From Candidatus Zixiibacteriota bacterium (GTDB lineage: Bacteria > Zixibacteria > MSB-5A5 > UBA10806 > 4484-95): 37,260 nt of DNA. Every line of letters starts with the position of its first letter. Positions within the stretch are counted from its first letter, which is position 1. This document shows positions 1 to 6,000 of the stretch, in pieces. Location of the stretch: positions 1 through 37,260 of the forward strand of contig JAOZPT010000022.1 in the NCBI GenBank assembly GCA_029932605.1. Reading direction: 5' to 3'. Made by a program: the position numbers.

Positions 1-3000
1 CCGTTAAAAAACAGAGGTTGATTCATACAGCCCAGCGATTATTTGGCCGTTTTGGTTTTAAGAAAACGACGATAGAGGAGATTATACGTTTAACCAGAAT
101 AGCGAAGGGGACTTTTTATAAATATTTTCCGAACAAAGAAGCTTTATTTCTGGAGATTGTTAAAGAGGAAAGTGCCAACCTGATTTCAGCTATACGTAAG
201 GCAGTAGCTCGGTCTTCAAACTCGCAGGAGAAAATGAAGTATTATATTGCAACCAAGGTTAGTAAGATCATCGAGCTGGTCAATTTTCATCAGATAACAA
301 GGGAGAATATTGACGAATATTGGCCTCACATTGAGGAGGTCAGGGAAAACTATTTAAACGAGGAGCAAAAAATTGTCCATGAGATCATCATTAATGGCAT
401 ATCAAACGGGGAATTTGAGGTAACCAATCCGGAACTTACTGCTTATGTGATTGTTATGACAATAGAGGGACTTGAGTCAACCTGGAGGATTAAAACTAGT
501 CCTATGGAACTTGGGGAAGCAATAGATCTTTTTCTCAACATTCTATTTCGAGGGATACTAAAAAATAAATTTCAACCTTAAGATAAAAGATTTTGTAATT
601 TAACGTTTAAACATGGAGGTGATTTAAGATGAACATTTTAAATGCAATACCTCATCGGGCTGAGGTTGTTGTCCTCAAATTTTTAACATCAGCATCGCTT
701 CTCAGGCCAACTGTATTTAGATTCCTTGAGCAGGTCGCTTACCATGAGATAGTAAAGTTAAAAAATAAAGATGCTCTCGAGCAAGTTCAGTATGACAAGT
801 TAGCTATGGTGAAGGCTATGATTCACTCTGGTGAAGTAGGTCTTTCACGAGGACTTATTGGCCCAAATGCACGTGATAGGGTAGCCGATATTCTGCTGGG
901 AAAGATTATGTACAAACCACAGGAAACGCTTCAGCGGTTTTTTGAGAAACATGGTATGAATCCACCCGGTTTCATAGTTATAAGTCCTACTGCACGATGT
1001 AATCTGAAATGTAAGGGTTGTTATGCAGGAAGTGATGCCTCTCGGAGAGCTACACTGCCGTATAGTATTCTGGACAGAATATTAAATGAAAAGTTGAAGC
1101 TCTGGGGAAGTCATTTCACGGTGGTCTCCGGTGGAGAACCTTTTCTCTACAAAGATGATGGTAAGACCTTACTGGATATATTTGAAAAGCACTTAGACCA
1201 ATATTTTTTGGTTTATACAAATGGGACTCTGATCACTCCTGATGTAGCCCAGAGGCTTAGTGAACTTGGAAATGTCACACCAGCTATTTCAGTTGAGGGA
1301 ATGGAAAAGGAGACGGATGACCGTCGCGGCAAAGGGGTTTTCAAACGTATTCTGAAAACCTTCGAAAACCTGCGTCGTGTGGGTGTTCCTTTTGGAATAT
1401 CGACCACTGCATTTAGGCATAATGCCGAACGCATTCAGGATGACGAGTTTATAAACTTCTTCTTTGAACAACAGGGTGCCTTGTATCAATGGATCTTCCA
1501 GTATATGCCTATTGGCCGCAGTTTCACGTTAGAGATGATGGTAACACCGGAACAACGTCTGCGCATGTATAAACGCACCTGGGAGTTGGTTCGTAAGAGA
1601 AAGCTTTTTGTTGCTGATTTCTGGAACTCGGGCACTGTATCCGATGGGTGTATCGCCGCTGGAGGTGGATATGGCAGTGGCTACTTCTATATTGATTGGA
1701 ACGGATCGGTTGCCCCTTGCGCTTTCAATCCTTTTTCAATGCACAACATCAAAGAGGTCTATGCCGCCGGAGGTGATCTGAATACCGTGTTTTTTTCTCC
1801 GCTGTTTATAGAGGTTCGGAACTGGCAGAGAGAATATTTTTACGACAGGCCTGTATACGAGAAGGGAAATCTAATTGTCCCTTGCCCTATTCGGGATCAT
1901 CATCGAAGGATGCGAGCTATTATCGATAAAGTCCATGCTAAGCCCATTGATGAGGACGGTGCCAAGGCATTAAAAGACGCGTCATATGGCAAGGGGCTGG
2001 CTGAATACGGGGATAAGGTCGGACGTCTATCCTGTTCTCTCTGGGAGAAACATTATTTGGTCTATGAACAAAGGAAAATGGCAGGGTAAAAGCAAAATAA
2101 AACGGTGAGGGGGGAAATAGTATCTAATGCAACTTTCGTTGGTAGATGGGGATACCTGTAAACCTCCTAATGTATTTTGTAGCTGGTGTATATACTTATG
2201 AACCAGTATGGGTTTTTGTTAGCAGATGCGGACAAGCACCAACTACATGAAGTATGAGTTCTCATAGGTTTTTGAATTACAATTAGCGGCGCAGGGACTC
2301 GAACCCCGGACACGAGGATTATGATTCCTCTGCTCTGACCAACTGAGCTACGCCGCCACATGGTGCCAATTTATTTCTTGTTCAAAAATTGTCAAGAAAT
2401 TCTTTCTTTAATTATATCGGCATATTTAATTGACTTATTTTTCATTTTCGTTATATTTTTATAAGTCGGATGGGATAATTTATCAGTATTAAATATGTTC
2501 AAGTTAAAATATTAAAACGAGGAAGTCATGATGGGTTTAAAAAATTTTAAAGAAAGCATCGGCAACGGTATTTCCAGACGTAAGTTTATAAGTACTGCTG
2601 CCGGGGGTACAGCCATTGCCTTGTTCAGACCGTCGATTGCTTTAGCAACCCATACTCCTGACCATTTTCTTTTAAATGATTATGTTGGTCGGTTATGTTA
2701 CAATGAAAACCCCCTTGGGCCTTCTCCCAAGGCGATCACGGCTATGAAAGAACAAATCCATATGGGCCACCGCTATACCGATTGGTTTGCTGATTCTTTA
2801 AGAAGCAAGCTGGGCGATCTGCATGGAGTATCTTCGTCTAAAGTAATTGCTGGTGGTGGGGCAACTGAGATCCTTCGCCTTTGTGCCTATGCCTTTGCTG
2901 ACCCCGATGGTAACGTTGTCTGTCCGTATCCATCGTATGGTCAGTTTGCCTCCGATTCTAATTTCGTTGGGGCGGAAGTAAGGTATTCAGATCTTGATGG

Positions 3001-6000
3001 CAACTACAGAATCGATCTTGATGATATGGCTTCGCGTGTTGACGACAATACTTCAGCTGTGTGTATTACAAATCCTAATAATCCTACTGCTACTGTTTTA
3101 GCTGCTAATGATATTGAAAATTTTGTAAACAGTCTTCCTCACCATGTTGTTACCATTATCGATGAAGCTTACCATGAATATGTTGACGACCCATCTTATC
3201 AAACAGCTATGGAGTTAGTACTTCAGGATAAAAAAGTAGTTGTTATTCGGACCTTTTCCAAGGTTTTTGGTCTTGCGGGAGTACGTATAGGATATGCAGT
3301 TGGAATTAGTAGTTTGATATCTGCGTTAAGATCCTGGCAGTATTATGCAACTGTCTCAAGGTTGGCTCTTGAGGCGGCCAAATCTGCCCTTGATGATAGC
3401 CAACATGTCACCGATACGGTAGAACTGAATACGATGGCCAAACAATTTTGCTTTGATAGCTTCGACTCGATGGGCTTGGAGTATATCCCCTCCCAGACTA
3501 ATTACTTTATGGTTGATGTTAACCAACCTGCCAGTAATGTTGCTGGCCAGCTTGCTCAGAGAGGCATTAGAGTGCGAACAGGTTGGGGAATGCCCAACCA
3601 TTTGCGTGTTTCAACGGGCACAATGGAAGAGATGCAGGATTTTGTTAACGCTCTAAATGAAATCCTTAACCCCTTGAGTAAAATGTCGCCTTTAACCCCA
3701 ATGATAACAACTCTTGAGGGTAACTATCCGAATCCTTTTAATGGTTCTACCCATATCGAATATTCGATAGCCAAGGGTGGGCATGTTTTATTGCAGATAT
3801 TTAACATCCAGGGACAACTTGTAAAAACGGTTGTTGATGAATATAAGTTCCCCGGAAATTACGCCTTTGACTGGAATGGTAAAAATCAGAGTGGAGCTCC
3901 GGTGGCTTCGGGATCGTATTTTTATAAGTTGACTTCAGGAGACTTTACCCAGACAAGAAGGATGATACTGGTAAAGTAAGTTAGAATTATTGTTGGACTG
4001 CACCCCCTAATTCTGGACTGTTTAGGTTAGAATTGTCTGATCGTTTTCAGTATATTCCTTGTGCTGAATCTCAAACTCCTCGCTAGATATTCTTACCTTT
4101 TAATCCAATCTCAAGAGTTCACTTCACCTTGTATTTAATATACTTTAAATTTACTATGCAACATCTAAAACATTAAAGCCCTATCCTACACACGCCGAAG
4201 TCATATATAACAAAAGAGATTATAGAGATTTTAATGTTAAACTAACTATAAGGGAATGCCTGTATGCCCACTCATATAATGGTTGTCGATGATGAAGACA
4301 GCATGTGCGAGTTCATGCGTATTATGCTTTCTAAAGAAGGCTACGATGTTACCGCCGACACCTCGGCCAGCCACGCTCTTGAAACCCTGAGCAAAACACA
4401 GAAATCCGATGACAAAGTCGATTTGGTGATTGCTGATTTGATGATGCCGGAGATGTCTGGGATTGAACTTTTGACAAAGGCTAAATCAATCGATGTGGGG
4501 CTGGATTTCATTGTCATGACCGCTTTTGCTTCGGTGGAGACGGCTATTGAGGCTCTTAAGAAAGGCGCTTTCGATTATGTCACGAAGCCGTTTAAGATCG
4601 ATGAGGTCAAGATCGCTATTAAGAAGATCGAAGAACGTAAAAGAATAAAATCTGAGAACCTAATGCTAAAAAAACAACTTCACTGCGACTTCGAAAGTTT
4701 TATAACAAACGACCCCAAGGTAAAAAGAATATTACATCTGGCAAAGAAAGTTGCTAATTCGGATACGACTATATTGATTCTTGGTGAATCAGGTGTTGGT
4801 AAAGAAGTTTTGGCCAAAGCGATTCGCTCGGAGAGCAACCGAGCTGATAAAGCTTTTGTCTCGGTGAATTGTGGTGCCCTTCCTGAGAACCTGCTTGAAT
4901 CAGAACTCTTTGGTCATGTGAGAGGAGCCTTTACCGGTGCTGTCAAAGATAAACAGGGATTGTTTGCGGTGGCTGATAAGGGAACGATATTTTTAGATGA
5001 AATAGGGGAAACCTCACCTGCTATTCAGGTTAAGCTCCTGCGGGCACTTGAGGAAAAAATAATTACACCTGTGGGAAGCACTAAAAGCATGTGTATCGAT
5101 GTTAGGATTATTGCTGCTACTAATGCCAACCTGGAAAAGAGAGTTAAAAAAGGAGAATTCCGGCCTGATCTTTATTATCGATTGAATGTTTTTCCTATAA
5201 CAATTCCACCATTACGTGATAGACCAGCAGATATTGAGCTTTTAGCTAATTATTTTCTCAAAAGACACTGTGCCAGGATGGAAATCCCTGAAAAAAAGAT
5301 CGTTCCTGAGACGATGGCCTTGTTAAAATCATATAGTTGGCCAGGGAATATACGACAATTGGAAAATGTGTTGGAACGAGCGATAATTTTAGCCAAAGGT
5401 TCAGCAATTTTGCCATCAGATATACCTGAACTTGTTGAAAAATCTATGGAGAATAGAATAACTGGTGTATCATCCGATAGCTTGACCGTATTATCGAAAC
5501 TATCTCCTGACCTGGATACCATTGAGAAAGCCTATATTTACTACATATTATCTGAGAATAACTGGCATAAGTCAAAAGTAGCTAAGCTCTTGGGAATTGA
5601 TACTTCGACTTTATACCGCAAGATCGAACGCTACGGTTTACAACCCCCGGTAATAGAAACAAAAGGGATATAAGTTAATCCTTGTAGATTTAACGCTCAA
5701 TGGATGGTGGTTAATGCGCAGGGAAATATACCAACAACGAATCCACATTAAAAAAACCACTTGAAAATCTTCTGATTTTGTTCTAAAAAGGCTTGCAATG
5801 AATAAAAACAGCTTCCGGAATAGATGCTCGTGATAAAGAAGCTTCCAGAACATTTAATCGACAAAATAGCCGCCGGCGAGGTTGTTGAAAATCCTGCCTC
5901 GGTTGTCAAAGAACTTATTGAAAACTCCCTCGATTCCGGTGCCAGGACACTTGATTTGACGATTCAGCGGGGGGGGACCAAACTTATCCGCCTGATGGAT

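Follow-up and report, generated by a model that had tools for sequence, protein, structure and literature searches.

The window, the whole stretch of 37,260 nucleotides of a Candidatus Zixiibacteriota contig analyzed here, carries near its start a gene whose product joins a predicted twin-arginine (Tat) signal peptide, a pyridoxal phosphate (PLP) aminotransferase domain and a type IX secretion system (T9SS) C-terminal sorting domain (CTD). The features of this locus are as follows:

2283..2358, minus strand: tRNA-Met(CAT), upstream of the aminotransferase gene on the opposite strand and a neighbour only
2430..2459, plus strand: weak sigma-70-like site, TTGACT-N16/18-TATATT/TATTTT
2519..2523, plus strand: GAGGA resembling a Shine-Dalgarno site, 7 nt upstream of ATG 2531, read from the sequence
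2531..3979, plus strand: Tat-signal PLP aminotransferase gene with a type A T9SS CTD, 482 aa from 2531 or 483 aa from 2528
2531..2647, plus strand: predicted Tat signal peptide with n-region, RR motif, Gly/Ala-rich h-region, Arg34 and A-L-A
2573..2593, plus strand: twin-arginine motif S-R-R-K-F-I-S (S16 to S22), from the homolog alignment
2678..3670, plus strand: class I/II aminotransferase domain of fold type I (residues ~51-381), with 3ly1 as the closest solved structure
3251..3262, plus strand: T-F-S-K motif, in which K245 aligns with K214 of E. coli HisC
3692..3976, plus strand: type A T9SS CTD, YPNPFN ... RRMILVK, all-beta in the predicted model

Residues are numbered from the 2528 start. 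The ATG at 2531, the start given in the genome-wide survey's note, is preferred because of the GAGGA that precedes it. Sigma-70-like sites near the gene are not above chance, with 5 observed against 6.0 expected. Apart from scattered two-component genes, no conserved neighbour family accompanies the gene across 16 related loci and the window. Operon context was thus rejected as a clue to the substrate, the gene being stand-alone.

The catalytic domain matches Aminotran_1_2 at residues 56-376 (E 1e-53) and has the Schiff-base lysine and PLP-contact residues of a class I/II PLP aminotransferase. K245 corresponds to K214, the Schiff-base lysine of E. coli HisC, and ten further PLP-site residues agree with HisC (Y83, Y137, N185, D212, Y215, T242, S244, R253, R350 and R360). 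The PLP-lysine motif, reported earlier from a few relatives, recurs in all 120 best homologs. The protein resembles HisC in its fold and in the residues that bind PLP, among them two arginines at the positions of R322 and R335, and hisC (TIGR01141) is its top NCBIfam match. That match, however, reaches 255 bits against a cut-off of 276.55, and an export signal stands in place of the N-terminal lid of HisC. HisD was not found in this 99.96% complete genome, in a search whose controls were positive in 14 of 14 cases, and for this reason the aminotransferase is not HisC. The earlier description as a HisC-like PLP enzyme therefore holds for fold and PLP site, not for HisC itself.

Its closest known relatives are periplasmic transaminase A of Pseudomonas (PtaA, NF051461), the PRK09105 subfamily (NF006580) and, grouped with them, the Erwinia carotovora structure 3ly1. 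PtaA and PRK09105 share the HisC-like fold and intact PLP site, and their models match the Tat signal here from residue 14-15. Scores are nevertheless far below cut-off (225 against 500 for PtaA, 248 against 444 for PRK09105), R55, C57, W86 and GWGM are specific to the present family, and PtaA has no C-terminal T9SS domain. Pyoverdine-type neighbours were not seen at the aminotransferase loci. According to the accessible text of PMC6206403, PtaA is exported by Tat in a folded, PLP-bound state, PvdN and PtaA both carry their cytoplasmic PLP through Tat, and PtaA acts in the periplasm.

In the signal peptide, R17, R18 and F20 are invariant in 70/70 aligned homologs, with variable columns on either side, and RRxF is present in 107 of the 120 best homologs, which are all 107 with intact N-termini. 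The remaining 13 are truncated N-terminally or have starts called inside the signal; a regular expression gave 108 matches, of which that in P0066 was false, its motif lying in the c-region. The claim that relatives keep the RR signal is thereby upheld. In the predicted structure residues 1-49 have low pLDDT, with a helix at 17-32. A putative signal peptidase I site, placed by eye, follows residue 40 (A38-L-A40). The Tat signal model TIGR01409 falls just short of its cut-off (16.1 bits against 16.7). The genome encodes TatC and, by motif scan, a TatA/B-like ORF on contig C36, in line with the survey's note. Its other strict RRxF proteins include a radical SAM, a 4Fe-4S and a flavin protein recognized by Pfam, and a formate dehydrogenase alpha subunit and a TldD-like protein recognized by eye, as expected of real Tat cargo. 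By family and by analogy with PtaA, Tat export of the aminotransferase is well supported.

For the tail, TIGR04183 scores 45.9 bits against a cut-off of 23, FlgD_ig and Por_Secre_tail are also above cut-off, and a model trained on the genome's other CTDs gives 104.8 bits, rank 41 of 72. All 120 best homologs end in a CTD, as had been proposed from fewer relatives. The survey counted 65 CTD genes; an iterated HMM finds 75 CTD-like ORFs, fragments and FlgD itself included. Among 60 CTD proteins with an intact N-terminus, strict RRxF occurs in two, the aminotransferase and a DUF362 protein, as claimed before; shuffled N-termini give a mean of 0.035, and P(>=2) is 0.0006. Weaker N-termini containing RR, without RRxF, are seen at C19:44129, C37:3074, C5:19766 and C81:5451. 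Other CTD cargo of the genome includes at least 16 peptidases. Type A cargo of Bacteroidota (gingipains, RemA and NucA; TIGR04183/PF18962) has the same terminal beta-sandwich and basic C-terminal motif.

The second protein, C21:10637-11941, carries SRRSFIK, DUF362 and a CTD that scores 34.4 bits with TIGR04183, bearing out the earlier assignment of that model to both proteins; TIGR01409 does not match it. Its description as an Fe-S family member is not supported. Pfam finds only DUF362 and the CTD, with no Fer4 domain, and a ferredoxin-type CxxCxxC is present in 0/89 relatives, among which several single cysteines are 80-96% conserved; a metal site of another kind may be present. DUF362 belongs to the LarA clan CL0471, as given in the accessible part of PMC11770544. 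The view that both Tat-CTD proteins are cofactor enzymes thus holds for the aminotransferase, with its intact PLP site, and lacks its Fe-S basis for DUF362. DUF362 relatives keep the RR motif and vary in their anchor, which may be a CTD, a dockerin-like tail or, without a tail, a probable lipoprotein cysteine. In one genome (G009), a single case, the aminotransferase-CTD and DUF362-CTD genes lie 3.4 kb apart.

Like Bacteroidota with type A cargo, the host has T9SS components. SprA is present, PorU scores 687 bits against a cut-off of 420, PorV-family barrels exceed the PorV_fam cut-off (the PorV equivalog, at 181, is below its own), and a PorZ-like protein scores 228, below the PorZ cut-off. 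Unlike Bacteroidota type A cargo, the aminotransferase bears a Tat-type signal instead of a Sec signal, is a metabolic enzyme with an organic cofactor and resides in a host without detectable GldL, GldM or GldN. These three components gave no match here, with positive Flavobacteriaceae controls, although a remote homolog may exist; the result agrees with the caveat that this T9SS lacks its motor. SprA and TatC are both encoded in each of the 14 other fusion genomes tested (TatC in 15/15 genomes tested), and GldM is absent from all 14, again with positive Flavobacteriaceae controls. One genome, G040, gave a single weak GldL match under cut-off.

The fusion had been thought specific to the order, on the basis of six of seven genomes within it and none of 16 others. 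It is indeed widespread there, matching 18/24 genomes including this one, and it also occurs well outside, under eight phylum labels. A tree of the catalytic domain alone, its members picked by similarity to the query family and E. coli HisC excluded as a long branch, places 49 Tat-bearing and 17 signal-less proteins on opposite sides of a split (support 100/99). Within the Tat side, 13 Tat-CTD proteins and one tail-less protein, P0245, form a 100/89 group. The single pure Tat-CTD clade of a quick tree was rejected once relatives were added, since P0244 lies apart and P0245 and P0246 have no CTD. As judged from these sequences, the aminotransferase belongs to a PtaA-like radiation of Tat-exported proteins, and its tail is a later addition. 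Tail-less relatives with a Tat signal occur in SprA-positive genomes of Flavobacteriaceae and Latescibacterota; together with P0245, they indicate that a surface location is unnecessary for the chemistry of the family.

The caveat that such proteins may exist unremarked in Bacteroidota proved correct. Both signals occur at 17/30 DUF1501 loci of Bacteroidota and in a cultured Leeuwenhoekiella (sp. A16), which has SprA, GldL, GldM and GldN; DUF1501 is absent from the present genome. The pairing is common across the FCB group, Bacteroidota included, and is peculiar neither to this genome nor to its order. Two other candidates were discarded: an intradiol dioxygenase, with a single match in 5 genomes and neither signal, and an aminotransferase-dockerin fusion (L106) that spans ~100 N and is probably a scaffold join.

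This pairing departs from current descriptions of the T9SS. Reviews, in their accessible parts, state that all cargo crosses the inner membrane unfolded via Sec, and 0/102 verified cargos have a Tat signal, which agrees with the note's account. The predictor T9GPred, as described in its accessible text, requires a Sec-type signal peptide and rejects any protein with a Tat signal, and would reject the aminotransferase. A renewed search, confined largely to papers outside subscription, found no description of Tat-dependent T9SS cargo, as before, and Zixibacteria with 'type IX secretion' returned 0 papers. The T2SS offers a likeness, since it accepts folded Tat cargo at an outer-membrane machine (PMC9127263, accessible text), with a different machine and signal; the literature searched held no analogous link to the T9SS. 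Because SprA passes folded proteins and the T2SS accepts Tat cargo, a Tat-to-T9SS route is plausible rather than startling.

The reading favoured here, with a probability of roughly 0.6, is that the aminotransferase folds with PLP, is exported by Tat and is then handed to SprA, PorV and PorU. A PtaA-like, Tat-dependent transaminase would have acquired a type A tail that sends it to the cell surface or the medium instead of leaving it in the periplasm. Fold type I enzymes are generally dimers. From its conserved residues and family, the precursor would fold in the cytoplasm, bind PLP at K245 and probably dimerise. The holo-enzyme very probably crosses the inner membrane by Tat, its signal being cut after A40. 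By analogy with Bacteroidota structures, PorV in the SprA pore would bind the CTD and the cargo would be carried out, after which PorU may remove the CTD and leave the enzyme anchored or released. Its likely job would be to transaminate amino acids or other molecules with an amine group at the surface, alongside the peptidase-rich CTD cargo, and the DUF362 protein would use the same two signals. Against this reading, a transaminase needs a keto-acid co-substrate, which would presumably be easier to supply in the periplasm, and in F. johnsoniae loss of the motor is described, in the accessible text, as trapping cargo on the translocon.

A doubtful but tangible alternative is that the enzyme stays in the envelope, the tail docking or retaining it, for example at PorV or on the side of SprA that faces the periplasm; where the motor is missing, part of the CTD proteins may stay inside for good. 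The missing GldL, GldM and GldN fit this, as do the large insert in the main PorV, the many tail-less relatives with the same signal and the periplasmic activity of tail-less PtaA. Yet the tail cannot be told from those of ~70 other CTD proteins, which include many peptidases and adhesin-like proteins, PorU is far above its cut-off, and Leeuwenhoekiella combines Tat-CTD proteins with GldL, GldM and GldN.

It is improbable that the RR motif is only inherited and that the protein travels by Sec, like all T9SS cargo documented in the accessible literature, to acquire PLP later. The marginal TIGR01409 score would allow this, but the invariance of R17, R18 and F20 beside drifting columns, the Gly/Ala-rich h-region, TatC in every genome tested and the Tat passage of PvdN and PtaA with PLP argue against it. 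It is very unlikely that, after Tat export, the protein crosses the outer membrane by other means, a secretin or vesicles, and that the tail plays no part. Such a route could draw on T2SS acceptance of Tat cargo and on the secretin cluster at 28820-35149 in the window; that secretin, however, lies beside PilM/N/O and scores as PilQ (302 bits, above cut-off), not GspD, and many phyla conserve the tail along with SprA. The reading as a cytoplasmic HisC whose motifs arose by chance, or as a chimeric assembly, has hisC as top match in its favour and is refuted by the sub-threshold score, the lack of HisD, the absence of the HisC N-terminal Tyr and the same architecture in more than 100 independent sequences.

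Of the Tat-to-T9SS route proposed by the survey's note, the conserved signals, the presence of Tat with SprA, PorV and PorU and the Sec-only literature all stand; passage across the outer membrane and display at the surface are still putative. Whether the route is a general one of the FCB superphylum, bringing enzymes that are already folded, charged with cofactor and possibly oligomeric (aminotransferase, DUF362, DUF1501) to the surface, is evenly balanced; in Zixibacteria and their kin it would run via SprA-PorV-PorU without GldLM, with release powered otherwise. The question can be tested directly in a cultured flavobacterium that has SprA, GldLMN and Tat-CTD DUF1501 proteins. If true, the T9SS could display holo-enzymes, and surface enzymes with cytoplasmically loaded cofactors would have been missed by design, as T9GPred drops Tat signals.

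The aminotransferase ORF (2528/2531-3979, +) encodes 483 or 482 residues, by the start chosen. By sequence, S-R-R-K-F-I-S and an A-L-A site mark its N-terminus as a signal peptide; the middle of the protein is an Aminotran_1_2 domain and its end a FlgD_ig/Por_Secre_tail domain (Pfam). The protein scores 45.9 bits against TIGR04183, the T9SS sorting domain (CTD; cut-off 23), and 16.1 bits against TIGR01409, below the cut-off of 16.7. Its AlphaFold model (mean pLDDT 87) has a low-confidence N-terminus, an enzyme fold and an all-beta tail set apart, with 3ly1, a putative aminotransferase of Erwinia, as top structural match. 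Flanked by a tRNA-Met on the opposite strand and by a sigma-54 regulator, the gene is a stand-alone one, and the radical SAM/SPASM and TetR pair listed below is not kept beside it in relatives' loci.

Other features of the window
18-581, +, TetR regulator ahead of the aminotransferase gene (Pfam)
629-2089, +, radical SAM/SPASM protein ahead of the aminotransferase gene (Pfam)
23871-25427, +, CTD protein without RR motif (Pfam, HMM)
25455-28640, +, CTD protein without RR motif, M36 metallopeptidase (Pfam, HMM)
28820-35149, +, Type IV pilus cluster: GspH/N-methyl pilin-like, PilM, PilN, PilO, AMIN protein, PilQ secretin

We assign a probability of about 0.62 to a route in which the aminotransferase would fold with PLP in the cytoplasm, be carried out folded by Tat, and then pass through SprA to PorU with its tail bound to PorV, ending at the surface or in the medium. 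The Tat step we infer strongly. PtaA, the characterised protein of this kind, is Tat-exported with PLP bound and found in non-pyoverdine species too, according to a review (PMC6206403). Available sections of Paillat 2023 (PMC10202324) give all T9SS effectors a Sec-dependent signal, as do those of Lasica 2017, a 2022 JBC review, a 2026 Chem Rev review and PMC7073777; gingipains have such a signal (PMC4804311). T9GPred, in the text available, has 'no Tat signal' as a criterion, and its table S3 records Tat as absent in 102/102 verified T9SS cargos (PMC10515386). The term T9SS has no occurrence in a 2026 Tat review (PMC13673990), and a literature search largely confined to papers outside subscription found no description of Tat-fed T9SS cargo.

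The pairing of signals is more frequent than chance predicts. An iterated HMM finds 75 CTD-like ORFs in the genome, which revises the 65 of the genome-wide survey's note; its claim that just two carry the motif holds, with strict RRxF in 2/60 CTD proteins with intact N-termini, the aminotransferase and a DUF362 protein (P(>=2 RRxF)=0.0006 with shuffled N-termini). Among the 120 best aminotransferase homologs, the CTD and the PLP-lysine motif are each present in all 120 and RRxF in 107, the other 13 being truncated or having a start called within the signal. R17, R18 and F20 are invariant in a 70-row alignment, and adjoining columns vary. A looser RR scan of the genome gives 11 matches, 7 resembling Tat cargo: the two CTD proteins, radical SAM, 4Fe-4S and flavin oxidase proteins (Pfam), and, assigned by eye from sequence, a TldD-like protein and a formate dehydrogenase alpha subunit. 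At C21:18517-19644 an RRxF signal precedes a radical SAM protein; export would be unusual for an enzyme of this class. The Tat-signal formate dehydrogenase alpha subunit (C85:77916-80891) spans two ORFs, the break probably being a selenocysteine codon. A Pfam scan of 62 other CTD proteins, 10 fragments or gapped ORFs excluded, finds no organic-cofactor domain and at least 16 peptidases; that the aminotransferase works beside many secreted peptidases is a guess.

The DUF362 gene (C21:10637-11941) encodes SRRSFIK, DUF362 and a CTD (TIGR04183, 34.4 bits), with no TIGR01409 match. A regular expression finds the Tat motif in 29/34 DUF362 matches with CTD; of the other five, P0140 has it by inspection and four lack their N-terminus. 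CxxCxxC occurs in 0/89 relatives, whose conserved residues include K93, K196-R-H198, C205, K208, H227, D255, D284, D289 and C292, and the LarA clan includes DUF362 in the accessible part of PMC11770544; the earlier label of Fe-S enzyme is therefore unsupported, though the protein may plausibly have a site for a metal or a cofactor. The protein is matched in 8/24 genomes of the order. Relatives keep the RR motif and differ in the anchor: some have a CTD, others a dockerin-like tail, and others no tail but a probable lipoprotein Cys. Seven Tat-signal DUF362 proteins (P0153-P0158, P0160) end in a dockerin-like domain instead of a CTD, possibly a second sorting tail. One 7.5 kb locus (L023:5902-13418, genome G009) holds an aminotransferase-CTD, a DUF362-CTD and a tail-less DUF362 protein, all with the RR motif.

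The aminotransferase residues Y83, Y137, N185, D212, Y215, T242, S244, K245, R253, R350 and R360 match all PLP-site residues of E. coli HisC; N-terminal Tyr20, Asp85 and Tyr243 of HisC have no match. The protein misses the cut-offs of the hisC, PRK09105 and PtaA models and a search finds no HisD in the genome (controls positive 14/14); a histidine-pathway role (HisC) is therefore ruled out. C9:19687-20892 encodes a signal-less HisC-like paralog that is divergent, its branch being very long. In a tree of the catalytic domain alone, 49 Tat-bearing and 17 signal-less proteins separate (support 100/99). Inside the Tat side, 13 Tat+CTD proteins and tail-less P0245 form one group (100/89), sister to P0246, which has a different C-terminal domain; P0244, a further CTD protein, lies nearby with weak support. 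On this tree, with the signal-less proteins taken as outgroup, the Tat signal predates the tail.

The protein is matched in 18/24 genomes of the order, this one counted. The genome-wide survey's note gave 0/16 for genomes outside the order; among the 80 loci listed by a scan of genome contigs are at least 15 fusions in at least 14 genomes, which carry the labels Zixibacteria, Eisenbacteria, Krumholzibacteria, Ignavibacteria, Neomarinimicrobia, WOR-3/Stahlbacteria, Gemmatimonadota and Lentisphaeria or are unclassified. All 15 listed fusions have the RR motif, and SprA and TatC occur in 14/14 listed fusion genomes. Tail-less Tat relatives are found in genomes with and without SprA. The subject genome has SprA, a PorZ-like protein and four barrels of the PorV family, and its PorU scores well above cut-off; from such homology and co-occurrence we infer that the aminotransferase would cross the outer membrane. 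The main doubt on this step is the motor, since GldL, GldM and GldN were searched for in this genome and none was found. Available text of Lauber 2024 (PMC10994853) has PorV in SprA binding cargo energy-free, with release needing the motor. Periplasmic docking in place of outer-membrane passage is the less likely alternative that this doubt raises. GldM is found in 0/14 listed fusion genomes, three Flavobacteriaceae controls being positive, and is undetected in every non-Flavobacteriaceae genome with SprA tested (G000, the subject genome, G001-G015, G020 and G021), which suggests that motor-less T9SS is widespread.

The Tat+CTD pairing is not unique to this lineage. That it might exist unremarked in Bacteroidota is borne out by DUF1501 proteins, relatives of which occur in 33/81 sampled genomes of Leeuwenhoekiella's phylum. 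Among 30 retrieved loci, RRxF and a terminal CTD occur together in 17; in 6 a CTD is present but no RRxF is detected, three of these having an RK variant; a further 6 have RRxF but lack a terminal CTD, and 1 has neither feature. The genome of Leeuwenhoekiella sp. A16 has SprA, GldL, GldM and GldN and encodes two DUF1501 proteins with NRRxF and TIGR04183 scores barely above cut-off (L113:709-2412, L114:718-2328). With RRxF joined to a CTD, and a host that is a cultured flavobacterium equipped with both SprA and GldLMN, this pair offers a practical test case.
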